Positions 17,635 through 36,914 are shown, counted from the stretch's first letter. The stretch: DNA of 58,421 nt from a virus (IMGVR_UViG_3300017963_000308:1-58421), one strand, 5' to 3'. Program-made: numbers and translations. Notes: a model not told the origin generated them from the letters alone.

Positions 17635-17645
17635 GAGTGTTAAGG

Positions 17646-17674
17646 TTGACACGTGTAAAGGTTTCTGTTATAAT
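17646..17674 (+). promoter_or_regulatory. Consensus sigma70 promoter at the start of the inserted block
   Basis: TTGACA-17 bp-TATAAT with extended TG. Confidence 0.85.
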
Positions 17675-17694
17675 CCTTGTTATGGAAAGAACAA

Positions 17695-18900: not shown

Positions 18901-19150
18901 GCGTGGGGGAAGATTAACCTATGTTGATTACGAAAAACGTTATAATTGGTTGGTAGAATTTTTCCAGGAAAATGAAGGGCGCGCTCCATCATATGATGAG
19001 GTTAGCGAAGGATGGGGTGTGTCTAAAACTTCAGTTGCAGCTACATTAAAGCGATTTGAAATGAAGGGATGGATTACTTTAGCCCGGAATGACAACGGCC
19101 ATGTTATCCCCGGTTCGATGAGATTAAAGAAAGGTGTTGTTGATGGTTAG
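18878..19150 (+). CDS. LexA-like winged-helix DNA-binding protein (no protease domain)
   Basis: FF.ENEG.APSY.EV...WGVSK.SV...L...E.KGWI. Confidence 0.8.
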   Translation: MKKLQANRRGGRLTYVDYEKRYNWLVEFFQENEGRAPSYDEVSEGWGVSKTSVAATLKRFEMKGWITLARNDNGHVIPGSMRLKKGVVDG

Positions 19151-19427
19151 CATTCTTGATATCTATGACGAATTACCGGAAGACGAAAAGGAGATTATAA
19201 CGGAACATGTTTTATTTCTTATTAGGGAAAACAAGGAATCCAAAACGGCTATAAAAAGTATTCCAGAGGGTTTTAGGAAGTATTTTAGCCTTGAATTTGG
19301 GTTGGGGATTGGTAATAAAGAGGGTCAATTTATCGGCCTTGCTTGCAAATCTTGTAATGCTTTTCACCCAAGACATAGCGAAGATTGTCCAACACAGGAG
19401 TTGATGAATGCAATACCCCAAAGTTAG
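19143..19427 (+). CDS. Hypothetical protein with C-terminal Cys/His motif
   Basis: CKSC...H..DCP. Confidence 0.7.
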   Translation: MVSILDIYDELPEDEKEIITEHVLFLIRENKESKTAIKSIPEGFRKYFSLEFGLGIGNKEGQFIGLACKSCNAFHPRHSEDCPTQELMNAIPQS

Positions 19428-20145
19428 CGTAGTTGTCACCACGTACAATCGTCCCAAGTCCTTGCAAGCTATGTTGGAGCATCTTAGAGCGCAACAGCAT
19501 ATCAACTGGGATGATTTGGAAGTCATCATTATGGATGACGGAAGCGTAACAGATCCCATTAAATTTCATTCCCCCGAATTATGGCCGTTTGAAATTGTTT
19601 ACGAATATCATCAGCGCGGCGAAGGGCCACAGCTTTATAGTCTCAAAAACCGGGCTGTTGACATAGCGAAAAACCCTGTTATTTGGATGTTGGATGACGA
19701 TCTGATCTTTGATCGGCATACATTGATTATTCTTAGAACTATTCACGCGTTACTTGAAGACATTCGTCCTGTAGTACTTCCGCATTATAGCGATGCGGCG
19801 GAGCCTCATCATTTCCAAAATCCTTTTCCCCTGGACGTTAGCCCGGAAGAAAAAACCCATTGGGTATCTTTTGCCGGATTGTCGTTGTGGAAAAAGGATT
19901 TTTTGAAAGTCGGCGGCATTGACGAAAATTACGATGGGGCAATGGGGTTTGCCGATTTGGATTTGGGGATCCGGCTTCACAAGGATGGATGTTGTAATAT
20001 CATGGTTGATGGGGTGACCTGTCATATTGACGATGCTGAAACCGGCTCTTGGCGTCATCAGTTTTTGGAAAACCACCAAAACGGCAAGTATTTTCTGAAT
20101 AAGTGGGGATTGGAAGAGGCGGCCAAGTACGACATAACTCCATGA
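19408..20145 (+). CDS. Glycosyltransferase family 2
   Basis: VSVVVTTYNR, DDGS.D, LDDD, VGG.DE, D.DL..R. Confidence 0.93.
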   Translation: MQYPKVSVVVTTYNRPKSLQAMLEHLRAQQHINWDDLEVIIMDDGSVTDPIKFHSPELWPFEIVYEYHQRGEGPQLYSLKNRAVDIAKNPVIWMLDDDLIFDRHTLIILRTIHALLEDIRPVVLPHYSDAAEPHHFQNPFPLDVSPEEKTHWVSFAGLSLWKKDFLKVGGIDENYDGAMGFADLDLGIRLHKDGCCNIMVDGVTCHIDDAETGSWRHQFLENHQNGKYFLNKWGLEEAAKYDITP

Positions 20146-20783
20146 TCGTAGTTTGTCACGTTCCTAAATCGGCTGGAAATAGCTTTAAGAGGGCGTTGCG
20201 GAAAATTATGGGTGATAAGGTATTATCGATTTCCGCCGCCGCTTATGCCATGATAGATCCGGCGACTAAGGCTCTCGAAGATAGGCATTTAAGAAATTAT
20301 GAAGTTATTTTCGGCCATCTTCTCCCCGCTCCATATCTCCCGTTAAAAGGAAAGTACAATATTACTTTCATAACGTGGATGCGGGATCCGGTTGACCGGG
20401 TTATTTCGCATTACAACTTTCTGGGATTAGTGTACAATAACTCAGGCTCGCTACAACAACAGGTGGTAGATGAAGAGTGGAGTTTGATGGAGTTCGCTTT
20501 GCATCCCAGAATTCGCAATCTATATAGCCGGTATTACGAAGGGTTTGGGCTGGAAAGGTTTGATTTTGTTGGAATCTTGGAGCACTATCGGGAAGATCTT
20601 GATTGGCTTTCCAAGAACTTCTTTAATGGCGAATTGGGTTATGGGGGGAATTTGGAGCACTATCATACCCTAAAAAACCCAAGCGACTCTATCGGTACCG
20701 TTGAGCGAAGTAAGATTCGTGACTATCATAGTAGGGATATGCGATTATATGAAAAGGCATTAAGGTTGAGAGATGGTCGGTAA
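20142..20783 (+). CDS. Sulfotransferase (Sulfotransfer_2-like)
   Basis: HVPKSAGNS (5'-PSB) and RDPVDRVISHY (3'-PB) motifs. Confidence 0.9.
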   Translation: MIVVCHVPKSAGNSFKRALRKIMGDKVLSISAAAYAMIDPATKALEDRHLRNYEVIFGHLLPAPYLPLKGKYNITFITWMRDPVDRVISHYNFLGLVYNNSGSLQQQVVDEEWSLMEFALHPRIRNLYSRYYEGFGLERFDFVGILEHYREDLDWLSKNFFNGELGYGGNLEHYHTLKNPSDSIGTVERSKIRDYHSRDMRLYEKALRLRDGR

Positions 20784-21054
20784 ATCTTACTTTCTTAGTC
20801 GGGGCTTGCTTAACTTGGCTATAAAGACAACATTTTCTTTTGTCAATCTCATTATTGCTATCGAAGTTTGCATAGCAGTTAAACAACATGGGCTAATCGG
20901 GATCTTAGGGATGATAGATTGGGTTTTGGTTATGCTTGTGCTTGGTACTGCGGCCGCGTGGTTTCACGTAAGGCAAGTTGAATTAGATAAGGCGCATCAA
21001 TTAATGGGGAGTCCATTGGGGCATGCCAAAAATACCAGAAATGCTAGAAAATGA
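20773..21054 (+). CDS. Small membrane protein
   Basis: Two hydrophobic segments. Confidence 0.65.
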   Translation: MVGKSYFLSRGLLNLAIKTTFSFVNLIIAIEVCIAVKQHGLIGILGMIDWVLVMLVLGTAAAWFHVRQVELDKAHQLMGSPLGHAKNTRNARK

Positions 21055-21433
21055 GTGGCCGGAGTATCCGGGCGATTCTGAAATCAAAATACCGCCCTAT
21101 GTAAGCCAAATTGAAAGAATTCTGGGTTTAACTTCATACGATATTTACCAGACAGCTTACGAAAAAGGATGGTGGGATGAGCCGCGCTCGTTTGGTGATA
21201 TTATCGCCTTAATTCATTCTGAATTATCAGAAGCATTAGAGGCTTTCAGGAAACATAATCCCCCTAGCGAGAAGATTCCTGGTTTTACTCAAATTGAAGA
21301 AGAATTGGCTGATGCTGTTATCAGGATTTTGGATGCTAGTGCAAAGCATGGGTGGGGGGTACCGGGGGCAATTGTAGCTAAAATGGAATACAACAAAACT
21401 CGCCCGCATAGGCATGGGGGTAAGGCATTATAA
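21023..21433 (+). CDS. MazG-like NTP pyrophosphohydrolase
   Basis: LIHSELSEALEA, EEELAD..IR..D, KM.YN..R...HG. Confidence 0.9.
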   Translation: MPKIPEMLENEWPEYPGDSEIKIPPYVSQIERILGLTSYDIYQTAYEKGWWDEPRSFGDIIALIHSELSEALEAFRKHNPPSEKIPGFTQIEEELADAVIRILDASAKHGWGVPGAIVAKMEYNKTRPHRHGGKAL

Positions 21434-22203
21434 TGACAGGAAAAGTTGTTGCGGTTGTGGCCGACTGGGGAGATGGTTTTGCTCAATTACATGCCTCAAA
21501 AATATCGGATTTTTGCGGCATAGAAGCGATTGCCGTTCGCGGATATGATCATGAGCCTGTTGTCCTCAACAGGATGATTGAAGAGGCCGATGGGGATTAT
21601 GTATGGTTTACGGATATAGATGATACAATCATCTACCCTGATACGGCGCATGTGTTGGCTACATTTTTGGACAGATACCCTCAAGTTGGTATAGCCTGCC
21701 CCCATCGCTCAAGTGAACCGCGGGGAGCTAACCAACCTTACGTGTGGTACCTGGAAGACAATACCTGTGCAATGTATCGCAAATCAGTCGGGGCTAAGTT
21801 TGATCCCGACTTTATTTTTACCGGTTGGAATGATCTGGATTTCGGAGAAGAGGTTAAGCATCTGGGTTTTCAGGTGGTGAAGTACGGGTTAATCAGTGTC
21901 CAGAAGAGCCATACGCCTTATGGCGATTGGAGTAATTTTAGATCGGCCTACAATGCCCGGAATCGATTGCTACTTGAAGCAAAATGGTATTGGGTTGGTC
22001 GCGCCAAGTGGCAAGGTGTTGATCATTATAACGAGTTGCAGGCAGAGCATGGTAAGGAAATTCCAACCATGTTTGAATTAGCATGGTGGTCGGAAGACAA
22101 ACTTAATCGGTTTGCAGCCAGTATTGATATGGAACACCCTCAGATTTACGAATTGGCCGATAAAGGGCCGGGGAATGAAGAATGGAGCATCAACAATATT
22201 TAG
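21433..22203 (+). CDS. Glycosyltransferase family 2-like
   Basis: N..I....GDYV.F.D.D, P.VG..CP, D.DF, RNR. Confidence 0.75.
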   Translation: MTGKVVAVVADWGDGFAQLHASKISDFCGIEAIAVRGYDHEPVVLNRMIEEADGDYVWFTDIDDTIIYPDTAHVLATFLDRYPQVGIACPHRSSEPRGANQPYVWYLEDNTCAMYRKSVGAKFDPDFIFTGWNDLDFGEEVKHLGFQVVKYGLISVQKSHTPYGDWSNFRSAYNARNRLLLEAKWYWVGRAKWQGVDHYNELQAEHGKEIPTMFELAWWSEDKLNRFAASIDMEHPQIYELADKGPGNEEWSINNI

Positions 22204-22781
22204 TCAATTGGGCGATTGAGGTTCAAAGAACAGAATCTTCATTTGTAAAGAACAGTCTGGGTTGGCTGATTTATGGCTACGTAAGAGCCTACAAGCCTCA
22301 ACGTTGTGTGGAGTTCGGGGTACTTCATGGCTATTCTACCTTGTTTATTGGCGGAGCACTCAGAGATAACGACCTGCCTGCAATGCTAGAATCTTTTGAT
22401 CGATGGCCGGGGCATTTGCCGGGTTTGAGGGATCAGGTTGCGGCCAGGATTGAAGCGTGTGGTATGAATGATCTGATTACGCTTACCACATTGGATGTAC
22501 TTATCAACCCCCCAGATTTGGATGATATTGATTTTTTAATGGTTGACCTAAATAATACGGCGGAAACCCTTGAATGGATCATGAATAGATTTGCTCCAAA
22601 AATGAGCGAAAAGGGATTTATGATTTTCGAAGGGGGATCGGAAGAGCGGGATCATGAGGTTTGGATTGAGCAAAACCGGCTTACTCCCATCAAAGAAGCA
22701 TTTCAAAACTGGGTTTGGGATAATTGGCAATTTCATGTAATAGAGCCGTGGCCTAGTATGACCGTGATAACCAGGAGATAA
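22182..22781 (+). CDS. Class I SAM methyltransferase (Methyltransf_24-like)
   Basis: VEFGV.HGYST, IDF..VD. Confidence 0.85.
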   Translation: MEHQQYLVNWAIEVQRTESSFVKNSLGWLIYGYVRAYKPQRCVEFGVLHGYSTLFIGGALRDNDLPAMLESFDRWPGHLPGLRDQVAARIEACGMNDLITLTTLDVLINPPDLDDIDFLMVDLNNTAETLEWIMNRFAPKMSEKGFMIFEGGSEERDHEVWIEQNRLTPIKEAFQNWVWDNWQFHVIEPWPSMTVITRR

Positions 22782-22786
22782 AAGAC

Positions 22787-23911
22787 ATGATCAAGTCGCG
22801 GCAAGTTCCGCTATTTAAGCCATATGTCAATCAAAAGGCGATAGCCAATGCTATAAAAGTGCTTCAATCGGGCTGGATTGGGGAAGGGCCAGTTTCAGAA
22901 GAGTTTGAAAGGAAAGTTGGAGATGTGTTAGGGGTCAGTTACCCGGTTTTAACAAACTCCGGTACCGCGGCCTTGCATTTGGCATTAATCTTGGCTGGAG
23001 TACATCCCGGCGATGAAGTGATTACTACGGCGATGACATGTACCGCAACCAATCACCCCATTTTGATGTGTGGGGCTACTCCGATTTTCGCAGATATCGA
23101 TTATCAAACCGGCAATGTGGATCCGGCTGATATCGAGAGGCGAATAACTGAGCAAACCAAAGCTATTCTGGTTACCCATTGGGGCGGATATCCCTGTGAT
23201 ATGGAATCCATAAATCAAATTGGACCTAAACTGGACAAACATATTGCGATTATCCAGGATGGGGCGCATGCTCAGGGAGCTTATCTTAATGGCTATCCTA
23301 TAGCTAGATGGTCTGATTTTTTTATGACCAGTTTTCAGGCCATTAAAACTGTCACTATGGTTGACGGCGGTTTGCTTGGTTGCAGGTTTCCGGGTGATGC
23401 GGAAGAGGCCAAGCGGTTGCGTTGGTTTGCCATTGATCGCCAGCATCGGGAGCTTGCCCCAGATGGATACTACAATCATCGTGATATAGACAGGGTTGGA
23501 TACAAATACCAACCTAACGATGTGGCGGCCGCGATTGGTTTGGGGAACTTGGAAGATTTTGTAGAACTTGTAAAACAACGCCAACGAATCGCCAAGATGT
23601 ATGAAAACAAGTTAAGAGGCGTGTCGGGGGTAACCCCGTTTAAGAATGATCCCGGTTACGATAGTGCATATTGGTTGTTTTCCATCCACGTAGAAAACAG
23701 AGATGATTTTATTGCCGCCATGAAAGATCGTGGGGTAGGGGCGGGGGTTGTCCATCGTCGCAATGATGTCTATGGGGTTTTTGGTGGTCGCCGTAGTGAC
23801 TTGCCGAATTTAGACCGTTATGAAAAAACTTATGTTAGTATCCCTATCCATAATATGATGACCTATGAAGATGCCGGATACGTTATCGAGTGCATCAAAA
23901 GAGGTTGGTAA
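22787..23911 (+). CDS. DegT/DnrJ/EryC1/StrS PLP-dependent sugar aminotransferase
   Basis: NSGTAALHLAL, GDEVIT, D.AHA.G, SF...K....DGG. Confidence 0.96.
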   Translation: MIKSRQVPLFKPYVNQKAIANAIKVLQSGWIGEGPVSEEFERKVGDVLGVSYPVLTNSGTAALHLALILAGVHPGDEVITTAMTCTATNHPILMCGATPIFADIDYQTGNVDPADIERRITEQTKAILVTHWGGYPCDMESINQIGPKLDKHIAIIQDGAHAQGAYLNGYPIARWSDFFMTSFQAIKTVTMVDGGLLGCRFPGDAEEAKRLRWFAIDRQHRELAPDGYYNHRDIDRVGYKYQPNDVAAAIGLGNLEDFVELVKQRQRIAKMYENKLRGVSGVTPFKNDPGYDSAYWLFSIHVENRDDFIAAMKDRGVGAGVVHRRNDVYGVFGGRRSDLPNLDRYEKTYVSIPIHNMMTYEDAGYVIECIKRGW

Positions 23912-24678
23912 TGAGTCAAAACTTAGTTAACCATTATCTTAACTTGGTTATGGCTTGTTTGTGTGATTACGTCTATCCCGATCCAGATGAGATGCAAATT
24001 AGAACAGAACAGGATAAATGGTTTGGGAGATATCACCCTCGCAAAGCGCATGCCATGACTGGCATGGCAAGGTTGCATAACGTAGTAAAACTATCCCAAC
24101 GAATTTTTGATGCCGATGTTCCCGGTGATTTTATGGAGTGTGGAGTTTGGCGGGGCGGAGCATCTATACTTATGAAAGCCTGTTTGGTGGCCGCCGATTG
24201 CAGGAATAGAAACTTGTGGGTAGCTGATTCTTTTGATGGTTTGCCGGAGCCGAATTTGGAAAAGTGGCCTAAAGATCGCTTCAAAATCAAAATCTGGGAA
24301 GACCCTAAGCTTTCTGTTTCTTTATCAGAGGTACAAGAAAATTTCAAGAAATATGGGCTATTAGATTCGTCGGTTAAATTTCTTGAGGGTTGGTTTGAAG
24401 ATACTATCCCCTCGGCTCCGGTAGAGCAGCTTGCCTTGTTACGGCTAGATGGGGATATGTACGGCTCTACCTGGGTTTGTTTAGAGCATTTATATCCCAA
24501 ATTGGCCGTGGGGGGGTATATCATAATTGATGATTATTATGCTTTACGACAAGCAACACAGGCAACCGATGATTATCGCAAAAAGCATAAAATCGAAACA
24601 GGGTTAACGTCCTGTGAAGAAAATGCCCCAGATGGAAAAGGTTGGGGTGTTTTTTGGAGAAAAGAAGATGACGTTTAA
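23911..24678 (+). CDS. TylF/MycF/NovP sugar O-methyltransferase
   Basis: GDFMECGVWRGG, ADSF.GLP, GWF.DT, LRLDGDMY.ST, IIDDY. Confidence 0.95.
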   Translation: MSQNLVNHYLNLVMACLCDYVYPDPDEMQIRTEQDKWFGRYHPRKAHAMTGMARLHNVVKLSQRIFDADVPGDFMECGVWRGGASILMKACLVAADCRNRNLWVADSFDGLPEPNLEKWPKDRFKIKIWEDPKLSVSLSEVQENFKKYGLLDSSVKFLEGWFEDTIPSAPVEQLALLRLDGDMYGSTWVCLEHLYPKLAVGGYIIIDDYYALRQATQATDDYRKKHKIETGLTSCEENAPDGKGWGVFWRKEDDV

Positions 24679-24925
24679 AACAAGCAAGTTAATTAACGAA
24701 TCCGTATCCTCTGATCACGCAGGGATGCCATTGTGTCCAGGACAAGGTTTGGAGCATGATTGGGTTGATATGGAGATAACCAATTCCACAGATGCCCCCT
24801 TTGGATCCGGATATAAATTTCGCACATGGACAAGAGAAGTTTGTCGGAATTGTAAAGCCATCAGGCGACAGGTTTGGGATAATGATGGTTATGGGGGTCA
24901 GGGTATCCCCACGGTGCAATTGTGA
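24668..24925 (+). CDS. Small Cys/His protein
   Basis: C...H.W...CRNC. Confidence 0.6.
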   Translation: MTFKTSKLINESVSSDHAGMPLCPGQGLEHDWVDMEITNSTDAPFGSGYKFRTWTREVCRNCKAIRRQVWDNDGYGGQGIPTVQL

Positions 24926-25866
24926 GAAACAAGTTTTTCCCGTTTGCCTATGATACAGTTGTGGCGGTAGTTTCCGATTTGCACGCCGGGGGAACAACTG
25001 CTCTATGCCCGCCCGCGGTAACGATGAATGAGGGCGGTACTTATCGACAAAGCAAGTTGCAAGGTTGGCTATGGGTTAATTATCTTGCTTACTGGGACAT
25101 GATAGACGAATTGTTAGCTGCTCCAGAAACGCAACCGCGATTTATTATGGTGCTGTTGGGTGATCTGATTGAAGGGTTGCATCACAAGCGGACTCAGCTA
25201 TGGACTACTAATCTTAACACTCAGGGAAAAGCGGCGGAAGAGGCGTTGCAAGAAGGATACAAGAGGAATCCAGATCACATGTTTTTCGTGAGAGGGACGG
25301 CGACTCACGTGGGGGATGAAGGATTAATGGAAGAGGCTATCGCCCAAAATTTCGGGGCCGTGGGGCCAAGGGAAGGAGTGTATTCGTGGTACCACTTGCA
25401 GTTAGATATTAACAGCATAATATCTGATTATTTGCATCACGGGAGTGGATCTGGGAGAGAATGGACCAAAGCGAATCCGGTTAACAACCAAGCTGCGGAT
25501 CTGGGGTTGAATTACTTCGAGAGGGGAGAAAAGCCGCCAGATGTCGCTTTTCGCGCTCATGTGCATCAAAAAGGCGATAGCTACGATAACTTCAAAATAC
25601 GCGTTATATCATTACCATCTTGGCAATTAAGTACGGAATTCGGCCACAAGATAGGCCGGGGTAAGCAGTTGCCAATTGGCAGCGTTGCGTTATTAATAGG
25701 CGATAGCATCTATGACGTAGAATCGTATTACAGATGGTCGCCGGGAGTCGAACCTTGGAAGATAGAGTCGAAAGATACGAGCGGCAACATGGGATTGATG
25801 GTCAAGAAATTCTCCGGCTTCTGGAAGAAGCAAAGAGAGAATCCCCCGAATCGCCAGGGGGAATGA
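24922..25866 (+). CDS. Calcineurin-like metallophosphoesterase
   Basis: SDLH.G, GD..EG, RGT..H, HHG, AHVH. Confidence 0.85.
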   Translation: MRNKFFPFAYDTVVAVVSDLHAGGTTALCPPAVTMNEGGTYRQSKLQGWLWVNYLAYWDMIDELLAAPETQPRFIMVLLGDLIEGLHHKRTQLWTTNLNTQGKAAEEALQEGYKRNPDHMFFVRGTATHVGDEGLMEEAIAQNFGAVGPREGVYSWYHLQLDINSIISDYLHHGSGSGREWTKANPVNNQAADLGLNYFERGEKPPDVAFRAHVHQKGDSYDNFKIRVISLPSWQLSTEFGHKIGRGKQLPIGSVALLIGDSIYDVESYYRWSPGVEPWKIESKDTSGNMGLMVKKFSGFWKKQRENPPNRQGE

Positions 25867-26102
25867 CTACTAGCCAAATGCTCAGGGCATTGGGTTGGAA
25901 AAGAAATAGTCACAGGTTTGGAAAATTACGCGAATGGATCAGGGAATTAATAGATGACGGATTAATTGAGCCATGTTCGGTAAGAATAACAACGGTAGGG
26001 GGGGATGAAATGACTACAAGGGGATATCGGCCAACGGGAAAGGGGTTGAATCTTTTAGATGATATCGAAATTGGAGAGGACGGCCAGGGCGATAGTCGGT
26101 GA
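25734..26102 (+). CDS. Putative winged-helix protein
   Basis: MTT..M...LG...LR..IREL...GLIE; start uncertain. Confidence 0.6.
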   Translation: MVAGSRTLEDRVERYERQHGIDGQEILRLLEEAKRESPESPGGMTTSQMLRALGWKRNSHRFGKLREWIRELIDDGLIEPCSVRITTVGGDEMTTRGYRPTGKGLNLLDDIEIGEDGQGDSR

Positions 26103-26244
26103 ACATACTGGTCGCGATACGTCTGCTTGGTCGGTTGCCCGCACAACCGGCCAACCTAAAAAGACTACCCGAATCGAATGCGGCGAGTGGATTTTATATG
26201 TTAACCTAGAAAACGAAAGTATCTATATCGCGAAAAGCCCATGA
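26059..26244 (+). CDS. Hypothetical protein
   Basis: Fills the gap, ATGA coupling to the next gene. Confidence 0.5.
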   Translation: MISKLERTARAIVGEHTGRDTSAWSVARTTGQPKKTTRIECGEWILYVNLENESIYIAKSP

Positions 26245-26777
26245 AAGAACTTGTACATCGATCAAGATCGCAGGCAATGAGAAAAAGAAAAGATTTTATT
26301 GATCTGCCAGAAGCCTATGAAAAATACTACAAATTTCTATACTTTTTGGTTAAGAATTTCAACCCTATTCATATATTAGAGTTGGGTGTATATAAGGGTA
26401 TTTCATTGCATCATATGTGTTTGGCGGCGCATCCCGCCACTAAAATTGTGGGGGTAGATATCGATTTAACGCAAATTCACCCCAGAGCGAATCTTGGTGA
26501 TGTCAGACTGGTTAATTCCGATAGCATTAAATATCTGGCAACACTCCCAACCGGAAGTATGGATGCGGCCATAGTGCATCTTGACACAGTACATGAGTTT
26601 GAGCACGTGCGAGTTGAACTTGCGGAAGTAGAAAGGGTATGTTGTTCACCGTCAATAGTTTGTATTGATGATATCGATATATCGTCAGATATGTCTCGAT
26701 GGTGGGGTAGCCTGCAAAGAAAAAAAGTTTATATGCCCGAATTGCATGTAACGGGTTACGGGTGCGTGCTCATATGA
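26241..26777 (+). CDS. Class I SAM methyltransferase (Methyltransf_24-like)
   Basis: LELGVYKG.S, GVDID, HLD..H, IDDI. Confidence 0.88.
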   Translation: MKELVHRSRSQAMRKRKDFIDLPEAYEKYYKFLYFLVKNFNPIHILELGVYKGISLHHMCLAAHPATKIVGVDIDLTQIHPRANLGDVRLVNSDSIKYLATLPTGSMDAAIVHLDTVHEFEHVRVELAEVERVCCSPSIVCIDDIDISSDMSRWWGSLQRKKVYMPELHVTGYGCVLI

Positions 26778-27313: not shown

Positions 27314-27933
27314 CTTGTATACTTGTCCTTGGTCACCCCAGAAGCGGAGCATCGTTAGTTGCTTCTTTGCTTCATAATCTTGGAGTCTACATGAATCCCA
27401 CGGCGGGGGATGAAATAGGAAATTCTTTTGAAGACAAGGAATTTAGCGATCTCCATAAAGAAATGTTGGGGGGATCTTGGCTTTATCCTACTCCATATGA
27501 TTTTTCCGAATATCATGATCGCTATGAAGTATTAATCAAAGGGCGGGCTAAACGTGATTCATGGGGTTACAAAAATATCGGAACTTCATTTGTTTTTCAG
27601 GATATTATACCTCTAATCAGGAAGTATGATGGTGATATACGGATAATAGTTGTGAGGCGGGCGGCGGAAGAATCTGTTGCCAGTTTAACAAGAAGACTAA
27701 GGCTATTGCCGTTTGAGTCAACGGAAACGGTAACCAAGTACATAGCTGCGGTTGACCGGGCCGCCAATAAATTCAATGGTCCTATCCTTACCGTGTCTTA
27801 CAGGCAGATATTGAAAACTCCGCCGCACCACATTATGCGATTGGCCGAATTTGCTGGAGTTTCCAATGATCCCGGTGTATGCGATATAGTTAAGCCAGCG
27901 TTGTGTCATTTTAAGTGGGAGTATTTGCAATGA
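27310..27933 (+). CDS. Sulfotransferase (P-loop type)
   Basis: VLGHPRSG.SL...L..LGV.M, FED, WG.K, R.....VASL. Confidence 0.85.
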   Translation: MTCILVLGHPRSGASLVASLLHNLGVYMNPTAGDEIGNSFEDKEFSDLHKEMLGGSWLYPTPYDFSEYHDRYEVLIKGRAKRDSWGYKNIGTSFVFQDIIPLIRKYDGDIRIIVVRRAAEESVASLTRRLRLLPFESTETVTKYIAAVDRAANKFNGPILTVSYRQILKTPPHHIMRLAEFAGVSNDPGVCDIVKPALCHFKWEYLQ

Positions 27934-28127
27934 CCGCGATTGAAGCGATGAATCTTACCAAGGAATTATCGATAAAACAGCAAAAGTTAAAATACTTGTA
28001 TTGGATTAATGGTGATTTTAAGATATTTTCAGTTTTCCGGGAAAATTGGTTGTTTTTGGCTTATCCAAATGGTGTATCGACAATAAGCAAAAAGGGGAAA
28101 GAAATTTTGGCAGGAGAATTGAGCTAG
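27930..28127 (+). CDS. Hypothetical protein
   Basis: Coupled overlaps at both ends. Confidence 0.6.
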   Translation: MTAIEAMNLTKELSIKQQKLKYLYWINGDFKIFSVFRENWLFLAYPNGVSTISKKGKEILAGELS

Positions 28128-29119
28128 TGAAAATATTACTTGTTAGTACGGCCGCGATAAGAACACCCCCAGAAGGTTACGGGGGGATGGAAAGGGAAGT
28201 TGATTGGCTCAGGCGTGGGATCTTGGAAATGCAAGAGGGGCTAACGTCAGACTGGTCGATTCAGGTTGATTTGGTTGCCGCCCCTGGATCCCCAGAAGCA
28301 AAATTTACTGCTGATGACGAAGCGGCATTCCCCAAGTTGGTAGAAGACTCGATTGACGATTATGACATCGTTATCGACTTCTCTCATGATAAGCAGATTG
28401 GCCGCCGTTGGCCCGAGTTGCCTCAGATCAATGTTTATCAGGTTATGACGGTTGGCTGGCCGGTTAACCCTGTTTACATCTCTAAGGCTCAAAGAGACTA
28501 TATCGGAATCGATGGACCTGTGATATACTACGGCATAGATCGCGATGCCTATCCGCCGAATTTGAGCGATGTTAGAAAAAATTACATGCTTTACATAGGC
28601 AGCTTAATTCAAGAAAAGCGTGTTCACTGGGTAGCGGAAGCTGCTCAGATTCTACGGCAAGGGGGTGATAATGTTCGGGTCATTATCGCCGGTCCACGTT
28701 GGCAGGCGGAATATTGGCCCACATTAGACGTATTGGCAGGGTTGGATTTCGTTACGATGATTAACGAAGTCGCCGGAGAGCAAAAGCTAAAAGTAATTCA
28801 AAATGCGGGCGCGTTGGTACATCCCGTGGGCGGAGCCGGATGGATTGAAGCAGGTGCGATTATTGCCCTGGAAGCATTAACATGCGGTATCCCGGTTATC
28901 GCTACTCCCAACGGGTGTTTACCGGAGTATATCAGGCCAAATATCAATGGGTTTTTGGTTGATTCGCCCCAAGCGATTGCTATGGCATACAAACAAATAA
29001 ATGGGATTAGACCGCGTGATTGTCACGCGTCTACGGCCAACTACGATTATCGTAGGATGGCAGAAGAATATCTTGAATTGGCCGGACAGGTGATGACCGG
29101 CAAGAGATGGGGAGAATAG
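28127..29119 (+). CDS. Glycosyltransferase family 4 (GT-B)
   Basis: PP.GYGG.E, EK.......A, E......EA..CG.PVI, NGFL. Confidence 0.92.
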   Translation: MKILLVSTAAIRTPPEGYGGMEREVDWLRRGILEMQEGLTSDWSIQVDLVAAPGSPEAKFTADDEAAFPKLVEDSIDDYDIVIDFSHDKQIGRRWPELPQINVYQVMTVGWPVNPVYISKAQRDYIGIDGPVIYYGIDRDAYPPNLSDVRKNYMLYIGSLIQEKRVHWVAEAAQILRQGGDNVRVIIAGPRWQAEYWPTLDVLAGLDFVTMINEVAGEQKLKVIQNAGALVHPVGGAGWIEAGAIIALEALTCGIPVIATPNGCLPEYIRPNINGFLVDSPQAIAMAYKQINGIRPRDCHASTANYDYRRMAEEYLELAGQVMTGKRWGE

Positions 29120-29128
29120 GAGTAAACA

Positions 29129-29584
29129 ATGAAACTCAAGATCTTTCTTATGTTAGGGTTACTTATATTGGCGTTTGGTTTAATGACCGGAGTCGCTTTT
29201 GCTCAGGATGTACCCCCGGAAGCCCCGCCTACGGCGGTTGAGGGAGTCCAGTGGTTGGCGATATTCCTTACTGCGGTAGTGGGACTTTTCGCCAACCGGG
29301 TTGTGGAGTTTATTTCCGGGTTGGGTTTTCTGAGTGGGGATGATAAAGAAAAGCTTCGCCAACCGGTACTTGATCTTATCGCCGCGGCGGGAGCAATTGG
29401 TTTGGGTTATGTGGTTGCTTTCCTTACCCCGGTCGCGGAGATGTTTGATGAACGTGGCTTGTGGGCTATCGTGATCGCCGCATGGCCGGTTGTATATGCA
29501 TGGTATCTAGCTCAGAAAGCTACGGGGCCGAAACGAGTTGTGGAAACAATTCTCGAACTTTTGCCAGAAACGGCGGATAAGTAA
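29129..29584 (+). CDS. Membrane protein with signal peptide and about 3 TM segments (holin-like, uncertain)
   Basis: AFA-Q cleavage motif, hydrophobic segments, AGGAG RBS. Confidence 0.65.
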   Translation: MKLKIFLMLGLLILAFGLMTGVAFAQDVPPEAPPTAVEGVQWLAIFLTAVVGLFANRVVEFISGLGFLSGDDKEKLRQPVLDLIAAAGAIGLGYVVAFLTPVAEMFDERGLWAIVIAAWPVVYAWYLAQKATGPKRVVETILELLPETADK

Positions 29585-30267
29585 TGATTGGCCTAGTTGT
29601 TCCAAGTTACAATGATAGGCGATTTTTGGAACAACTTTTCACGGGCCTAGTAACCACTTGGGCGGGGTATTCGTACTCCGCCCTTGTGGTTGACGATCTA
29701 TCTACGGACGGCACCAGAGAATGGCTTATCGATTCTGGTATAGACACGTTGGCCCTGGAAAGTAAAGGATATTTTACCGGTGCATGTAATGCCGGGATCG
29801 ACTATTGGATGAAAAATAGTCAAAATCTCGAATTAATTCTTTTGCTTAATTCGGATACTATTCCGATTCACAGGTGGGCAATCGAATTAATTTCTACCGT
29901 TAAAAAGATGGATGCCGGTATAACGGGATGCACTTTGCTTAACCCAGATGGCACGCTGCAGCATGCCGGGGGATATGATGCCGGTTATCACTTTGACATT
30001 AATAAGCCATGGATGCGATTTCATCAAGATCGCTATGTGCCATGGGTAACCGGGGCGGCAATGGCGATCAGGCCGGATGTTATACGAAAGATTGGCCTAC
30101 TGCCATCCAAGCGGGGGGAACAATATGATGCGTCTGATAGAAATTATTGCGCCAAAGTTTGGTTGGGTGGATTCCAGATCGCGGTAAGCGCGCTCAGTAA
30201 TTTTTATCATCATACTCATGAGGCCAGGGCGATCAGGTTGCCTAGAGGGGATTACGTGTTACGGTGA
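29584..30267 (+). CDS. Glycosyltransferase family 2
   Basis: VPSYN, VDD.STDGT, LLNSD, LQHAG, VTGA. Confidence 0.92.
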   Translation: MIGLVVPSYNDRRFLEQLFTGLVTTWAGYSYSALVVDDLSTDGTREWLIDSGIDTLALESKGYFTGACNAGIDYWMKNSQNLELILLLNSDTIPIHRWAIELISTVKKMDAGITGCTLLNPDGTLQHAGGYDAGYHFDINKPWMRFHQDRYVPWVTGAAMAIRPDVIRKIGLLPSKRGEQYDASDRNYCAKVWLGGFQIAVSALSNFYHHTHEARAIRLPRGDYVLR

Positions 30268-30806
30268 AATACTATGATTTGGGTGATGATTTACGAAAAC
30301 AATATCAAGATGCCCTGCAAAAGCATATAAAATCGGTCCAAGAGGCCGGGAAAGAATTAGGTGTTTCTCCCCATTTGTTAATGATACATGACCTGAGTAA
30401 GTGGTCAGAAGAGGAATTTGTTCCATATGCCTTGCACTTTTTCGGGGGTGGCGCGCCTAATTTGTTTGCTCCGGCATGGTTACATCACATTCACTACAAC
30501 CCCCATCACTGGCAACATTGGGTTTTCCCAGACAACTTTGAACTAAAGGGGGCAAATACTTTTCAGGGAACAGTTATGATGCCAGAAGAGTACGCTTTGG
30601 AAATGATTGCTGATTGGATTGGGGCAAGCAGGGTGTATAGCAATACCGATGATATGTCAAAGTGGCTTAGAAAAAGTGTTCCGAAGATCAAGTTGCACCC
30701 CGCAACACGTGAATATGTAACCAAAATTCTTAAAGACATAGGGTACAAGTCTTTATTCGAAGAAATTCAATTCTCGGATTTAAGGGAAGGTAATGGCGAT
30801 GACTAA
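30264..30806 (+). CDS. HD-domain phosphohydrolase (DUF5662-like)
   Basis: HDLSKW...EF, AWLHH...NPHHW, EM.ADW. Confidence 0.85.
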   Translation: MKYYDLGDDLRKQYQDALQKHIKSVQEAGKELGVSPHLLMIHDLSKWSEEEFVPYALHFFGGGAPNLFAPAWLHHIHYNPHHWQHWVFPDNFELKGANTFQGTVMMPEEYALEMIADWIGASRVYSNTDDMSKWLRKSVPKIKLHPATREYVTKILKDIGYKSLFEEIQFSDLREGNGDD

Positions 30807-31827
30807 ATTGGCCTTAGTTCGCGATAAGCATCTTAACTTACATGATATCGGCAATTACTATGGGCTGACCAAACTGGGAGTAGACCTGCTTTTGTGTGGT
30901 ACGCGCAAAGCCCCATGGGATCAAATAATGGAAATGTACCCGTTAGCTACACCGGTTTGTTACTCTGAGTTGTATGAAGTATTTCACCATGATCCTGATG
31001 TCATCGATGTCCCTGATGCCTTTTATGATTTTAGCAGATATTTTGTTGATCGGTTTGAAAAAACCGTTGTGGTAACCTGGGAGAATCTACCGGGGAAAGT
31101 TAGTCTAAATCCTGTTGCACTTGAGACATTGCGTAAAGCGTGGAAGGTAACGGCTAGAAGTGGATTGGCCTTGTATACTGATATTCGTATGCATGAAATA
31201 GATTTCAATAAAATCTTTTATATTCCGGGGGCGGTTGATACGGACTTTTTTCAGCCCCCCCCAACTCCGCCAAAAAACAACGTTGTTTTATTTGTGGGTC
31301 GATTGACCCAAGAAAAAGGCATTTTAGATTTAATTTGGGCGGCCAGCGTAACCGATGATATACACGTTAATGTTATTGGTGAGGGGGATCCGATTTACGA
31401 ATCGTTGGCAAATCACTATGCGCCCGGAAAATTTAATTTTCTTGGTCATGTTGACCGAAAATATTTACCCCAATGGTACCAACAGGCCAGTGTATTTTGC
31501 TTACCAACTCTTCCTTTGCTTAATGATCATGATCCTTTTGGGCAATGGGTTGAACAGTTTGGGCAGGTTTATATAGAAGCCATGGCCTGCGGTTTGCCTA
31601 TTATTACGTATTCAAGTCCAGTTGTGCAAACCATTATTCCCCGAGACACTCCCATGATAGCTCCGCGTGATTGGGGGGGATTGGCTTATATGCTTGCTAC
31701 CTATTCAGATCCAAATAATATTACATATGATTGGAAAGCCAATTCTGAGGCAAGTCGCAAGCGTGCTCTTGAAAAATTTTCGCAAATAGAAGTTGCCAAG
31801 CGAATCAAGGATTGGTATGAATTATGA
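30793..31827 (+). CDS. Glycosyltransferase family 4
   Basis: VD...F.P, FVGRL..EKG, EQFG...IEAMACGLP. Confidence 0.93.
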   Translation: MAMTKLALVRDKHLNLHDIGNYYGLTKLGVDLLLCGTRKAPWDQIMEMYPLATPVCYSELYEVFHHDPDVIDVPDAFYDFSRYFVDRFEKTVVVTWENLPGKVSLNPVALETLRKAWKVTARSGLALYTDIRMHEIDFNKIFYIPGAVDTDFFQPPPTPPKNNVVLFVGRLTQEKGILDLIWAASVTDDIHVNVIGEGDPIYESLANHYAPGKFNFLGHVDRKYLPQWYQQASVFCLPTLPLLNDHDPFGQWVEQFGQVYIEAMACGLPIITYSSPVVQTIIPRDTPMIAPRDWGGLAYMLATYSDPNNITYDWKANSEASRKRALEKFSQIEVAKRIKDWYEL

Positions 31828-32549
31828 ATATAGCCGTATGTATGATCGTGTTAAATGACGAAGATAATATCGGCCGCGCTCTACATAGTATTTATTGGGC
31901 AGACAGGTTGATTATTGTTGATGGCGGATCGGTCGATGGTACGGTAGACATTATTCAGAATCATTGTCCAATCCCGTATACGCTGATAAGGCAGGAGTGG
32001 GATAACCATTTCTCTAAACAACGTCAGTTTGCTAATAATGAGATGGCTAATTTAGAGAACTTATCACAAAATGTTTTTGTCGATGAAGGAGATTGGTGGT
32101 GGGTTAGGCTCGATTCCGATGAGCGATTTCCCAGAGAATGGGAGCAAATAACCCAACTTATCCCAACATTTCCCAAAGAGGTTGTTTGTGTCCGGGTCAG
32201 GCAGGTTAATTTATATCCAGATGTAGACACTTACTCAGCACGCCATGGGGGATGGGAAACGCACCCCAGACTATTTAAGAATATATTGCTTCCGAATGGG
32301 GGATCAGCTTGGAGATGGCAGGGGCAGGTACATGAATACCCTGAATTGATGACAACCCGGGGATTGCATTATCCCGATGGGGGAGAAATTATTGATGTTA
32401 GCTTGCCGGTTGATCATTATGGTTGGCTAGATCCTGAACGCAGGGCGGATCGAGAGTCGTTATACCTAGAAATGCCGGGATCTAATTTTCAGGCAGGTCA
32501 AATCACAAACAGAAAGCACGTAGTTAGAAAGGTTCCCAAATGCGAGTAG
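31824..32549 (+). CDS. Glycosyltransferase family 2 (beta-1,4-glucosyltransferase-like)
   Basis: VDGGS.DGT, FS.QR, LDSDE, VHE, HYG. Confidence 0.92.
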   Translation: MNIAVCMIVLNDEDNIGRALHSIYWADRLIIVDGGSVDGTVDIIQNHCPIPYTLIRQEWDNHFSKQRQFANNEMANLENLSQNVFVDEGDWWWVRLDSDERFPREWEQITQLIPTFPKEVVCVRVRQVNLYPDVDTYSARHGGWETHPRLFKNILLPNGGSAWRWQGQVHEYPELMTTRGLHYPDGGEIIDVSLPVDHYGWLDPERRADRESLYLEMPGSNFQAGQITNRKHVVRKVPKCE

Positions 32550-34963
32550 CGGTATATTGCGATCACGTTGGTAGTTCCGGGATTGCCCCAAACGACCAGT
32601 ATGGCGGCGGAGAATTTTTAACATTGGGGTATCTACACATCCTAAGTCAGCACTATGATGTAATCCCAATTGTCAATAATTATATATATCCCAATTTCGA
32701 CCATCCCGGTCGTTATGGATTGCCGGAAGCAAACTATAAGTGGAAGCCAATTGGCACCGATATGGGTTGGATCCGTAATTTTGATGTTTTTATCAATATC
32801 AGCCATGGTCGCATCTTGCCCCCGATTTGTCGCCGGAATATTCTGGTAGTGATGTTCCCCCAACACAAGGATTGGGACGTGTCCGGCTACGATACAATCA
32901 TCTCTATTAGCGAATATACTGCTAAATGGGTAAAGCGATACTGGGGTCGGGATAGTGATGTTGTGTATCCCCCATTGCCGGTACAGGCCATGACCACTAC
33001 AGAAGTCCAGAAATACCCTCAAATTATATCGGTTGGCAGATTCTTCCGGGTACCAGGGGGGAACAACAAAGGCCATGAAGTGCTTATCAAGTCTTTTCAA
33101 AACCTGTTTTTAGAAGACTGGAAATTAAAATTGGTTGGCAGTATTCAGGACAGAGCTTATTACAATGAAATGAGAGCCTTGGCCGGAGATGATCAGCGAA
33201 TAGAATTTGTCCATGATTTGTCAAGAGAGCAATACATGGATGAAATGCGAAGATCTCAGTTTTTGTGGGCGGCTACAGGATATCAATCGCTCGCTCCGTC
33301 CAGCAAAGAGCACTTTGGCATTATTGCGGTTGAAGCTATGGCTTCTGGTACTGTGCCCATTGTTAACAATTCTGGGGGCACTCCCGAAACCGGTGCGCTT
33401 ACTTGGGACAAACCAGTCGATCTAACCGAAATGACCCGGAAACTAATTGAAGATCGTGACAGGTGGATGGATGTTATTAAGGGTCAGATGCAAGGGGTAA
33501 TGAAGTTTGATTTGTCTAATAACAAACCCCTGTTGGATGTAATGGAAAAAGTGGTTGTGATTCAAAATGATCCAAGCAAGGGGCGAATCTATTCCGATTA
33601 CTCAACCCCGGACAAAGTTAAGATTGGGATATTATCAGATAGCCCTAATAGCACATTGGGGTTTGGTGTGGTGACCAGATCTTTGATCAGGGAATGGCAA
33701 AAAATGGGTTTTAGGATTGCTGCTTTTGGTCGCCATGATCCCCCCTCGCCTCATCCAAAACTTCCCCCAGAAGATATAATGGCTATGTTTAATCAAGTAA
33801 TTAACGATGATAGATTGGTTACCGGTCCTCAACAAATGGCCGTGCTTCGGGAGAAGTTAGCAGACAGGGGGGAGATTTGTACAATTTGGCGGGATCCTCG
33901 AGATGGATGGGATGGTGTTATCGATTTCATCAAACACGAAAAACCCGACGTGCTCTATATGAACTATGACATAGGAAACATAAGGTCTATTATAGACACA
34001 ATAAGGGCGGCCAGTATGACAATGCCGCCTTTTGTGGCTTATTTTCCGGTAGAGGGATTTCCCCTGCTTCATCAATACAATGAAACAATTCGCCTTATTC
34101 GATTACTTAATGGTGTTCCGGTAACCTATACCAAATTTGGGGCTATGGCTATCGCTCAGTCTGGTGGGCCACAAGTGGATTACGTGTGGCACGGGGCCGA
34201 TCATGCCAACTTCAGGAGATTAGATGAGCAGACTCGTAATGAATTGCGCTTTAGTGTAGGTGTTCATGATAAGTTTGTTTGTATGTTTGTGGGGCGAAAT
34301 AAGCGCACTAAAGGCATTCTTGGTTTAATCGAAGCGATCAAGGTGTTGAAAAATATGGGTAGGCATGATATAGTGTTTTATATCCATACATGGCCTAATG
34401 ATCGCATGCCCAATTCTTCGGCTCCGCTTGAAGAAATCGTGCGAATTGAGGGTATCGAAGACATGGTTATTTTTCCGGATGAAGATTTTAATCAAGTGTC
34501 TGGGGTACCCTTTGACAAAGAAATAATTATTCATGCTCAGGACACAAATGATCTAAAAGAAGTTCAAAGAATTAATTTGAAGTCCATGAACATGGTTGAG
34601 CGTTATAATTTGGCAGATTTGTATGTGAACTGTAGCGAGATTGGTGGATTTGAGTTGCCGTTGGTAGAAGCAATGGGTTGCGGTCTACCGATTTTAAGTG
34701 TAGACGACAAGGCCGCCCAAAGAGAAGTTTTGGGAGATACGGCCATGTATGTCGACGTGGCGCATTGGGACAGGTTCCATACATGGGCAAAGCTGGCGCA
34801 ATTTAACCCGGAACAAATGGCACAGGCCATACATGAAATATCCATGGATCCTAAAACACTGGCCGAATTTAGGTTGAAATCATCGAATCGATGGCAGCAG
34901 TTCAAATGGAAAGATACGGCCAAGGTATTAGCAGATGAGATATTGGAGCAACATTTATTATGA
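32540..34963 (+). CDS. Tandem double GT4 glycosyltransferase
   Basis: Two GT-B catalytic motifs, EHFGI..VEAMASG and GFELPLVEAMGCGLP. Confidence 0.93.
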   Translation: MRVAVYCDHVGSSGIAPNDQYGGGEFLTLGYLHILSQHYDVIPIVNNYIYPNFDHPGRYGLPEANYKWKPIGTDMGWIRNFDVFINISHGRILPPICRRNILVVMFPQHKDWDVSGYDTIISISEYTAKWVKRYWGRDSDVVYPPLPVQAMTTTEVQKYPQIISVGRFFRVPGGNNKGHEVLIKSFQNLFLEDWKLKLVGSIQDRAYYNEMRALAGDDQRIEFVHDLSREQYMDEMRRSQFLWAATGYQSLAPSSKEHFGIIAVEAMASGTVPIVNNSGGTPETGALTWDKPVDLTEMTRKLIEDRDRWMDVIKGQMQGVMKFDLSNNKPLLDVMEKVVVIQNDPSKGRIYSDYSTPDKVKIGILSDSPNSTLGFGVVTRSLIREWQKMGFRIAAFGRHDPPSPHPKLPPEDIMAMFNQVINDDRLVTGPQQMAVLREKLADRGEICTIWRDPRDGWDGVIDFIKHEKPDVLYMNYDIGNIRSIIDTIRAASMTMPPFVAYFPVEGFPLLHQYNETIRLIRLLNGVPVTYTKFGAMAIAQSGGPQVDYVWHGADHANFRRLDEQTRNELRFSVGVHDKFVCMFVGRNKRTKGILGLIEAIKVLKNMGRHDIVFYIHTWPNDRMPNSSAPLEEIVRIEGIEDMVIFPDEDFNQVSGVPFDKEIIIHAQDTNDLKEVQRINLKSMNMVERYNLADLYVNCSEIGGFELPLVEAMGCGLPILSVDDKAAQREVLGDTAMYVDVAHWDRFHTWAKLAQFNPEQMAQAIHEISMDPKTLAEFRLKSSNRWQQFKWKDTAKVLADEILEQHLL

Positions 34964-36750: not shown

Positions 36751-36751
36751 C

Positions 36752-36895: not shown

Positions 36896-36914
36896 TTGTA
36901 TTTTGGGAGAATTT

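Follow-up and report, generated by a model that had tools for sequence, protein, structure and literature searches.

Why would a bacteriophage keep fourteen genes for glycan enzymes between its portal gene and its protease gene, and on which molecule would their product be placed? The question is raised by IMGVR_UViG_3300017963_000308, a linear viral record of IMG/VR with 58,421 bases and an estimated completeness of about 70% (hereafter the window, i.e., the whole stretch analysed), which derives from an uncultured phage of marine sediment with a host that is probably marine as well. The locus in question is a cassette at positions 19408–34963 (15.5 kb; Table 1). With slightly better than even confidence, we consider it to encode a cytoplasmic system that glycosylates proteins of the phage's own virion (capsid, decoration, tail tube or fibres). 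Virion glycosylation is the best supported reading because the cassette occupies the same genomic slot as the glycosylation cassette of the cluster O mycobacteriophages, shares with it a TylF-family methyltransferase, is conserved in a clade of phages, and is accompanied by no encoded machinery for lipid carriers or DNA hydroxymethylation. The first-pass annotation of this DNA had already proposed a virion glycan, in the role of a shield. Slot, TylF, clade conservation and lack of carrier machinery favour the glycan; the acceptor proteins are candidates, and the role of a shield would be borrowed, by analogy, from mycobacteriophages.

The cassette, its enzymes and its conservation

Around 26 open reading frames (ORFs) make up the cassette, and 14 of them encode glycan enzymes, a clustering that is far beyond chance. 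By Pfam, seven genes carry eight glycosyltransferase (GT) domains (four GT2, one of them weak, two single GT4 and one double GT4), and the tailoring set comprises one DegT aminotransferase, one TylF O-methyltransferase, three further S-adenosylmethionine (SAM) methyltransferases and two sulfotransferases. Every enzyme listed in the first-pass annotation was recovered by Pfam at its coordinates, the weak GT2 below the cut-off of its family. The location that it had given, between portal and protease, was also found, with a PF06074 portal upstream and a gpI-like protease/scaffold downstream, and the translational coupling described for most of the genes agrees with the junctions between 17677 and 36547, which range in spacing from -133 to +9 bases and overlap in 31 of 33 cases. 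Interleaved with the enzymes are a MazG-like pyrophosphatase, which probably stands outside the glycan pathway, a metallophosphoesterase-like protein, a DUF5662 protein, several small ORFs and two small membrane proteins.

None of the GTs or tailoring enzymes looks membrane-bound; only GT4 a has one hydrophobic stretch, which is below threshold. The DxD-type motifs of the GT2 proteins, which we take to be catalytic, occupy columns that are unchanged across orthologs of 42–51% identity in GT2 c (all motif columns identical in 4 of 4 orthologs) and GT2 d (D97 and D99 of the motif DSD invariant in 5 of 5). For the sub-cut-off gene GT2 b, the assignment to GT2 is supported by the agreement of its features and its structure model in the ESM Atlas: the feature matches (0.96–0.98) are to clusters that are 92–100% viral, most of them named GT2-like, and the model has TM-scores of 0.67–0.72 to bacterial GT2 clusters. 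It also contains a DxD-type motif. The model of GT2 c (predicted local distance difference test, pLDDT, 63.5) matches the GT-A folds of PcManGT, TarS, TarP, GtrB and ArnC. As a clue to the acceptor it was rejected, its matches in the PDB and in BFVD being generic to the GT-A fold, and the model of GT2 d (pLDDT 51) was left unused.

Among the tailoring enzymes, the DegT protein has 4xau, 4zwv, CalS13 and ArnB as its nearest solved relatives, all of them presumably C4 aminotransferases, and the PseC and ArnB models are the top-scoring ones in NCBIfam. Within a full-length match to PF01041, its SFQAIK aligns with SFQALK of 4xau, the lysine of which we assume, by reference to ArnB, to be the residue that binds pyridoxal phosphate (PLP). 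By its sequence, the protein is probably a C4 aminotransferase that acts on a nucleoside diphosphate (NDP)-4-keto sugar. The nearest solved relatives of TylF are NovP (4.3e-60) and MycF (6e-54), in a full range of 4e-60 to 1e-52. NovP and MycF methylate sugars that are already attached, and kinship with them fits the tailoring of an assembled glycan. Both sulfotransferases exceed the curated cut-offs of their families (PF03567 and PF13469, respectively) and show candidate loops for the sulfate donor 3′-phosphoadenosine-5′-phosphosulfate (PAPS), namely PKSAGNS and RDPVDRVIS in the Sulfotransfer_2 protein and GHPRSGAS in the Sulfotransfer_3 protein, which we read as the PAPS-binding 5′-phosphosulfate (5′-PSB) and 3′-phosphate (3′-PB) motifs of sulfotransferases. 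The model of the Sulfotransfer_2 protein, whose true start is probably at residue 14, has TM-scores of 0.76–0.88 to Sulfotransfer_2 clusters of the ESM Atlas. A sequence search of the PDB with either sulfotransferase found no solved relative.

The conservation of the cassette was followed by means of the portal. A portal profile found 15 viral loci, seven of which have portals 43–57% identical to that of the window. All five relatives in this range with at least 3.5 kb of sequence downstream of the portal (L002, L003, L005, L006 and L007) carry cassette genes there; L002 and L003 are near-identical, so at least three lineages besides the window are represented. Another locus, L032, is seen from the capsid side and contains GT4 b, GT2 d, the double GT4, the Zn-ribbon protein, the scaffold, the decoration protein and the capsid. 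The complete genome G001, to which L005 belongs (83,420 bases, with terminal repeats), has its portal at 9508–10929, the cassette at 14236–28342, an S49 protease-scaffold at 30807–32501 and the capsid gene at 32931–34001. In all five remote relatives (portal about 31% identical), a scaffold homolog is found about 1.3–1.5 kb past the portal, which leaves no room for a cassette.

The core of the cassette has the same order in the clade: GT4 a, a small membrane protein, GT2 c, GT4 b, GT2 d and the double GT4. Its GT genes were found in the window, G001, L006 and L007, and L032 shows the 3′ part from GT4 b on. Upstream of this constant core, the tailoring genes vary from one relative to another: DegT and Sulfotransfer_3 are present in the window, G001 is without DegT and possesses a pair of Sulfotransfer_2 genes plus a further GT that is TOD1/MUCI70-like, and L006 and L007 have the core alone. 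The small transmembrane (TM) protein between GT4 a and GT2 c is present in the window, in G001 (20527–20859, 2 TM) and in L006 (13469–13972, 3 TM), but the three are mutually dissimilar in sequence, that of L006 weakly matching Phage_holin_4_1 (0.0074). Homologs of the winged-helix protein precede the cassette in L002, L003, L005, L006 and L007; this protein and the first GT2, separate in the window, form a single in-frame ORF in G001 (360 aa, L005:14236-15318) and in L003 (349 aa, L003:5234-6283).

The signature gene of the core is the double GT4. Among the best 150 matches listed from 1.84 billion representative proteins, eight (P0161–P0168) cover both of its GT4 halves, and a search of viral contigs with this protein as the single query found no locus. 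Its Pfam match to GT4-conflict was set aside as not specific (30.4 bits vs 99 bits for the generic GT4). The ortholog in G001 (L022:4701-8342, i.e., G001 24701–28342) contains an intein of 390 aa that starts with CFSGDT (Cys), ends with VVHN (His-Asn) and is followed by Cys at +1. The intein interrupts the second GT4 module at its HG-x-DH motif. Inteins are unusual in glycosyltransferases and mostly occupy genes that a phage cannot lose. Together with the invariant motifs, the SFQAIK of DegT and the candidate PAPS loops, this intein is counted in favour of the cassette enzymes being functional.

A chimeric join with a host polysaccharide locus, a possibility that the first-pass annotation had raised, is excluded. 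The stronger evidence is the synteny with head genes, a check that it had also proposed: the cassette stands at the same slot in 5/5 relatives, the complete G001 among them. In addition, assembly contigs of two public runs span positions 17001–37000 fully at even depth, including both junctions (a contig of 12,990 bases crosses the portal junction; a second, about 4,050 bases long, takes in the end of the cassette as far as 37000 and continues past it). The two runs, X1 and X2, have near-identical contig sets, maybe from one data set or source sample, and are counted as one assembly check. The G+C content is even across the block (0.42–0.47), and the flanks are alike.

Table 1. Features of the cassette, its flanks and other genes of the window (coordinates of the window; evidence as family match with E-value or score, motif or orthologs).
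Feature	Position	Strand	Evidence or remark
DnaN-type sliding clamp	11588-12706		
Large terminase	14382-16214		phrog_38, 3.9e-53
Mu-type portal, upstream flank	16147-17634	+	PF06074 1.2e-14; phrog_113
Predicted sigma-70 promoter	17646-17674	+	TTGACA-17-TATAAT, extended TG, 12/12; gap 12 bases past portal stop
Small winged-helix (MarR/LexA-like) protein ahead of cassette	18878-19150	+	MarR_2 4e-4, sub-cut-off
97-aa zinc-knuckle-like ORF	19134-19427		between winged-helix gene and first GT2
GT2 a	19408-20145	+	PF00535 3e-15; DDD motif; orthologs L002, L003, L005 50-51%
Sulfotransferase (Sulfotransfer_2)	20103-20783	+	PF03567 5.2e-6, 27.2 bits vs cut-off 22
Small 2-TM protein	20773-21054	+	hydropathy; no family match
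MazG-like nucleotide pyrophosphatase	21023-21433	+	phrog_3301 7.9e-30
GT2-like (GT-A) b	21433-22203	+	PF00535 0.0013, 19.1 bits vs cut-off 23.3; orthologs 53-58%
SAM methyltransferase (Methyltransf_24)	22182-22781	+	PF13578 1.9e-11
DegT-family PLP sugar aminotransferase	22787-23911	+	PF01041 5.6e-83, 279.6 bits
TylF-family sugar O-methyltransferase	23890-24678	+	PF05711 2e-78, 263.7 bits vs cut-off 23
Calcineurin-like phosphoesterase-like protein	24922-25866	+	PF00149 0.0073, sub-cut-off; DxH and GD motifs
SAM methyltransferase (Methyltransf_24)	26241-26777	+	PF13578 6.7e-9; PF04989 7.5e-5 (rhamnosyl O-methyltransferase/CmcI), just sub-cut-off
SAM methyltransferase (Methyltransf_23)	26762-27313	+	PF13489 6.5e-11
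Sulfotransferase (Sulfotransfer_3)	27271-27933	+	PF13469 2e-6, 28.6 bits vs cut-off 27, full profile; GHPRSGAS loop
GT4 a, first core gene	28046-29119	+	PF00534 4.1e-22; orthologs L005, L006, L007 42-54%
Membrane protein	29129-29584	+	Sec-type signal peptide (AFA-QD) and 3 TM
GT2 c (core)	29584-30267	+	PF00535 9.6e-9
DUF5662 protein	30264-30806	+	PF18907 2.9e-31; phrog_20637
GT4 b (core)	30793-31827	+	PF00534 2.7e-20; orthologs 36-48%
GT2 d (core)	31824-32549	+	PF00535 6.9e-11
Double GT4, two GT-B modules, 807 aa (core signature gene)	32540-34963	+	PF00534 2.2e-28, two stretches
Zn-ribbon protein with C-terminal PSBD-like domain, cassette 3′ end	34960-35373	+	orthologs G001, L032 32-35%
Predicted hairpin terminator, end of cassette unit	36602-36638	+	16-bp stem and T-run
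Mu gpI-like protease/scaffold, downstream flank	36903-38447	+	via L032 ortholog
Lambda gpD-like head decoration protein, candidate acceptor	38476-38883	+	PF02924 6e-6, sub-cut-off; phrog_909
Major capsid protein (Phage_cap_E family), candidate acceptor	38907-39980	+	PF03864 9.6e-16; phrog_29 4.6e-30
Tail tube protein, candidate acceptor	41511-42125	+	PF25681 1.3e-5, just sub-cut-off; phrog_21417 2.5e-13
Tape measure	42990-46205		

Possible targets of the glycan

Glycosylation of virion proteins would proceed in the cytoplasm, where soluble enzymes of the GT-A and GT-B folds may start and extend an oligosaccharide directly on proteins, from nucleotide sugars of the host. The core series GT4-GT2-GT4-GT2-double GT4 would build this oligosaccharide with the aid of the two upstream GT2 enzymes, DegT would convert an NDP-4-keto sugar of the host into a 4-amino sugar donor, TylF and the three other SAM methyltransferases would O-methylate the glycan, and the two PAPS-type sulfotransferases would sulfate it. 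A constant core with variable tailoring genes would result in different glycan decorations in related phages. The acceptor, the order of the steps, the sugars and a protective role are what we infer from the enzyme families and from analogy. We put forward only tentatively, as possible, a more specific version, in which the glycan of a clade of marine-sediment phages of about 80 kb is a hetero-oligosaccharide with sulfate groups, O-methyl groups and amino sugars, assembled in the host cytoplasm directly on the virion proteins, with at most about eight sugars (one per GT domain) and swappable tailoring modules that give rise to "glyco-serotypes".

Several observations weigh against a glycan on the virion. 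The C-termini of the capsid (VLQARVA, conserved with G001), decoration and tail tube proteins are without any Ser/Thr-rich or Ser-terminal tail. The membrane protein between GT4 a and GT2 c leaves room for a membrane-linked step, and the first GT2 of relatives has a winged-helix domain joined to it. Pfam and NCBIfam showed neither a dehydratase for nucleotide sugars nor a nucleotidyltransferase in the window, so the pathway would rely on the host. When all the window proteins were compared by tblastn with the loci of the mycobacteriophages Schuy and Che8, no GT of the window matched their GT genes at E<0.1, TylF being the only significant match. Finally, the head genes are preceded by promoter-hairpin units of their own, and a position in the head module is therefore no proof of co-expression with them.

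This last point comes from a promoter scan of 57 kb for the σ70 consensus with an extended -10. Only three sites match at 12/12 (7405, 17646 and 36644), all of them intergenic and on the plus strand; sites at 36544 and 36752 match at 11/12. Strong hairpin terminators are found at 13357, 36602 and 36710, and an additional hairpin with a T-run at 36860–36895. By these predicted signals the cassette looks like a transcription unit of its own, from the promoter at 17646 to the terminator at 36602, and would not simply be co-transcribed with the portal. As an argument about the timing of expression this is considered neutral. The region upstream of the protease/scaffold (36544–36895) holds three tandem near-perfect σ70 promoter units, each with a strong hairpin and T-run some 30–80 nt on, and the loops of the first two hairpins both contain GGCCAC. 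The array looks like a set of short terminated transcripts or of late promoters controlled by antitermination.

The alternative that survives best, in our opinion an unlikely one, is the remodelling of the host envelope, in which the enzymes would modify lipid-linked intermediates, wall polymers or surface proteins (S-layer, pili or flagellin) and so mask receptors, block superinfection or reduce the sticking of progeny to debris. The NCBIfam families closest to the GT2 and GT4 genes (EpsD, EpsE, HpsE/O/N, TuaC/G, Agl16 and PglH/I/J) are those of envelope-polysaccharide enzymes, though all the matches are far under the family cut-offs, and TarS, TarP, GtrB and ArnC among the fold matches of GT2 c point in the same direction. 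A membrane protein follows GT4 a wherever this was checked (window, G001 and L006), and the cassette's own consensus promoter could permit expression separate from the head genes. Against it speaks the lack, in the window as in the complete G001, of any match to a priming phosphoglycosyltransferase, GtrA, flippase, polymerase or GT-C enzyme. Dedicated searches for PF02397 (Bac_transf), PF00953 (WecA type) and PF04138 (GtrA) were negative in the window, G001 and G002, with positive controls; no flippase, ABC exporter, polymerase or GT-C family occurs among the Pfam matches of the window and G001 ORFs, and the cassette contains no large polytopic protein. The earlier remark that no flippase, polymerase or GtrAB is visible holds in this respect, GtrA included, but it had overlooked the two small membrane proteins inside the block, neither of which resembles GtrA or a flippase family. 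The block is also part of the head module, with neither an integrase nor an attachment site as its neighbour. An integrase catalytic domain is missing from the Pfam matches, and in a collection of 185,579 species genomes the portal profile matched only two loci, both on short contigs of metagenome-assembled genomes (MAGs). Known seroconversion cassettes have 1–3 genes, as compared with 14 here.

Rather less probable still is a target outside the virion or a free product, either another cytoplasmic protein of phage or host, or an oligosaccharide or glycolipid that is soluble, methylated and sulfated. Enzymes such as TylF, DegT and the CalS13-like ones are typical of the tailoring of natural-product sugars, the virion acceptors are candidates only, and the metallophosphoesterase-like, DUF5662 and MazG-like genes of the block could be accessory to such a product; on the other hand, genes for an aglycone (polyketide synthase, nonribosomal peptide synthetase or lipid synthesis) are absent from the Pfam matches of the window and G001, and the constant portal-to-protease position across the clade is hard to reconcile with a product unrelated to the head.

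Hypermodification of DNA, in which the GTs would glycosylate modified bases to evade restriction, is very improbable: the winged-helix domain fused to the first GT2 and the investment of G001 in DNA modification would suit it, but the window keeps the cassette without the DpdA/YhhQ insert of G001, none of the DNA-modification genes of G001 belongs to the cassette, the relatives of TylF and DegT act on sugars and not on bases, and no thymidylate-synthase-type (ThyS-type) hydroxymethylase is encoded in either genome. According to passages of a preprint (Pyle et al.), phage GT-A and GT-B enzymes do attach diverse glycans to 5-hydroxymethylcytosine (5hmC), but the known pathways for DNA glycans described there consist of 1–3 GTs beside 5mYOX or ThyS genes. 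The statement of the first-pass annotation that no base hydroxymethylase or TET/JBP enzyme is present is borne out for the former as regards the ThyS type, PF00303 being absent from the window and the complete G001 with a positive control; for the latter, Tet_JBP (PF12851) gave no match, though its control was likewise silent. No 2OG-oxygenase family appears among the Pfam matches of the scanned ORFs (those of the window and 99/125 of G001).

The genes for DNA modification in G001 comprise a DpdA-like protein (tRNA-guanine transglycosylase, TGT, with DUF6884), a YhhQ-type preQ0 transporter, a Mom-like gene and an N6/N4 DNA methylase. The coordinates are L005 2084-4004 and 12167-12847 (-), L022 9336-10721 (-) and L025 983-2539 (-) for the DpdA/YhhQ, Mom-like, TnpB-like and methylase genes, and the Mom-like and TnpB-like genes sit in the portal-to-protease slot. 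The DpdA-like and YhhQ-type pair suggests a 7-deazaguanine modification of the DNA of G001; in the window, the syntenic site without this insert lies between 10187–11143 and 11115–11591. G001 also encodes an actin-like ParM/ALP segregation protein (64240–65247, L024:4240-5247), which hints at a possible plasmid-like carrier state.

If virion glycosylation is real, it would extend this kind of modification to an unrelated environmental phage lineage, with about five times the gene content. In the parts of the literature that the search brought up, experimentally shown glycosylation of phage virions is attributed only to mycobacteriophages, where it has been studied for antibody recognition, and neither sulfation nor a 4-amino sugar is described for any phage particle. 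A sulfated glycoprotein coat would, if true, be the first known in any prokaryotic virus. The system would then bear on how phage particles meet particles, mucus-like matrices, grazers and enzymes in sediments, on why the portal-protease slot is a hot spot for cargo genes, and on whether such genes amount to a compact, soluble toolkit for protein glycosylation that is independent of lipid carriers.

The phage and its setting

Nearly all the genes of the window from about 5.7 kb onward are on the plus strand, and its proteins recur on a contig of 79,580 bases. The left end (1–5000) contains small minus-strand ORFs without any family match, has a G+C content of 0.37 (vs about 0.45) and a GC skew that changes sign near 3–4 kb, and is probably a divergent early region. 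The terminase and the capsid are only 21–28% identical to their best matches in isolated phages, so the phage has no cultured relative, and the cassette had no megablast match among 50,697 phage records.

As to the host, a tRNA search of the window found none. The two MAG contigs matched by the portal profile include one binned as Altiarchaeales: in a MAG labelled Candidatus Altiarchaeales, two short contigs carry the proteins most similar to the portal (72%) and to DegT (63%) (L026, WJJK01000131.1; proteins P0002 and P0042). These are probably mis-binned phage contigs, an assignment to Altiarchaeales being doubted because the phage has a bacterial β-clamp and σ70 promoters. The nearest homologs of DegT are metagenome proteins, and YhhQ of G001 has 59–61% identity equally to proteins of Nitrospinota, Peptococcaceae and Chloroflexi; neither points to a host.

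Some neighbouring genes deserve mention. The protease/scaffold has no Pfam match of its own and no match in a PDB sequence search; its ortholog in L032 (36% identity, 520 aa) matches Mu-like_Pro (PF10123, 1.8e-6). The orthologs of the Zn-ribbon protein in G001 and L032 match E3_binding (3e-8 and 9e-8). Two gpD-like decoration paralogs of the window (13954–14385 and 38476–38883; 42% identity, E 3e-23) stand directly before the large terminase and the capsid gene, respectively, and both are kept in relatives (L002–L006 and L026; L028–L033). Among the tail genes, 50545–51282 encodes a protein of 245 aa with an N-terminal TadE-like pseudopilin domain (PF07811, 2e-11) and one TM, for which G001 has no homolog. 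PADLOC found no defence system, a weak generic methyltransferase being its sole match.

Comparison with known systems

Among viruses in general, a parallel in chemistry comes from giant viruses. In chlorovirus PBCV-1 (A064R and its partners) and mimivirus (the viosamine/bacillosamine cluster), GTs of the virus work in the cytoplasm together with a methyltransferase for sugars, and mimivirus adds an aminotransferase of the DegT type; the glycans that these enzymes put on virion proteins, methylated or with amino sugars, need no secretory machinery of the host. The BFVD fold matches of GT2 c include many GT2 proteins of giant viruses, which is generic GT-A similarity only. Giant viruses differ in their eukaryotic hosts and unrelated capsids, and we know of no sulfation in the glycosylation of their capsids or fibrils.

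Two other phage systems share enzyme types with the cassette. The seroconversion modules (GtrABC and GTs that modify the O-antigen) also employ phage-encoded GT2 enzymes to alter a glycan; the window, in contrast, has no GtrA, membrane-anchored GtrB or GtrC, and its cassette is far larger and lies at a head-module site and not beside an integrase. Phage DNA glycosylation, as represented by the α- and β-GT of T4 and by the GTs associated with 5mYOX or ThyS (Pyle et al.), likewise relies on GT-A and GT-B enzymes, at times several in a row. The cassette of the window differs from it in its position outside the replication genes, in tailoring enzymes of sugar-specific families, and in that no hydroxymethylase or dioxygenase partner was found.

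The mycobacteriophages are nearer. The papers citing Freeman 2023, as far as their citing statements go, report that the phages Che8, Corndog and Myrna add sugars to the subunits of their capsid and tail tube, place these glycans at the C-termini, and ascribe the modification of both structures in the cluster O phages to an O-methyltransferase gene with three GT genes behind it. The cluster F system of Che8 (gp108–110) also has three tandem GTs, and the C-terminal part of gp108 matches TylF of the window (5e-9), but the genes are at the right end of the genome, outside the head module, and there is no further sequence similarity.

The closest likeness is that to the cluster O cassette (Corndog gp35–38; Schuy genes 34–37). 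By its annotation, Schuy has the order terminase, portal, O-methyltransferase, GT, GT, GT, capsid maturation protease and capsid, so that, compared by gene order, the portal-to-protease slot is identical to that of the window, and both systems have several tandem overlapping GT genes. TylF of the window is homologous to the methyltransferase of this cassette (Corndog gp35, Schuy gp34), with which it shares 26% identity in an alignment of 163 aa (E 2e-12 pairwise, 4e-7 in the database), and its 43 matches at E<=1e-5 in the 50,697 records are 42 mycobacteriophages and one Mycobacterium avium record (mtfB). The two cassettes differ in size (4 genes in 2.75 kb vs about 26 ORFs in 15.5 kb) and in content, since the window also has GT4 enzymes, DegT, two sulfotransferases and three further methyltransferases. 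The head genes are unrelated (those of the window being a Mu-type portal, a gpI-like protease and a Phage_cap_E-family capsid), and the capsid and tail protein of Schuy both end in Ser, unlike the capsid and tail tube of the window. Judged from sequence, the cassette is partly homologous to that of cluster O, through TylF, and by analogy it is best read as a much enlarged and chemically richer counterpart of this virion-glycosylation cassette.

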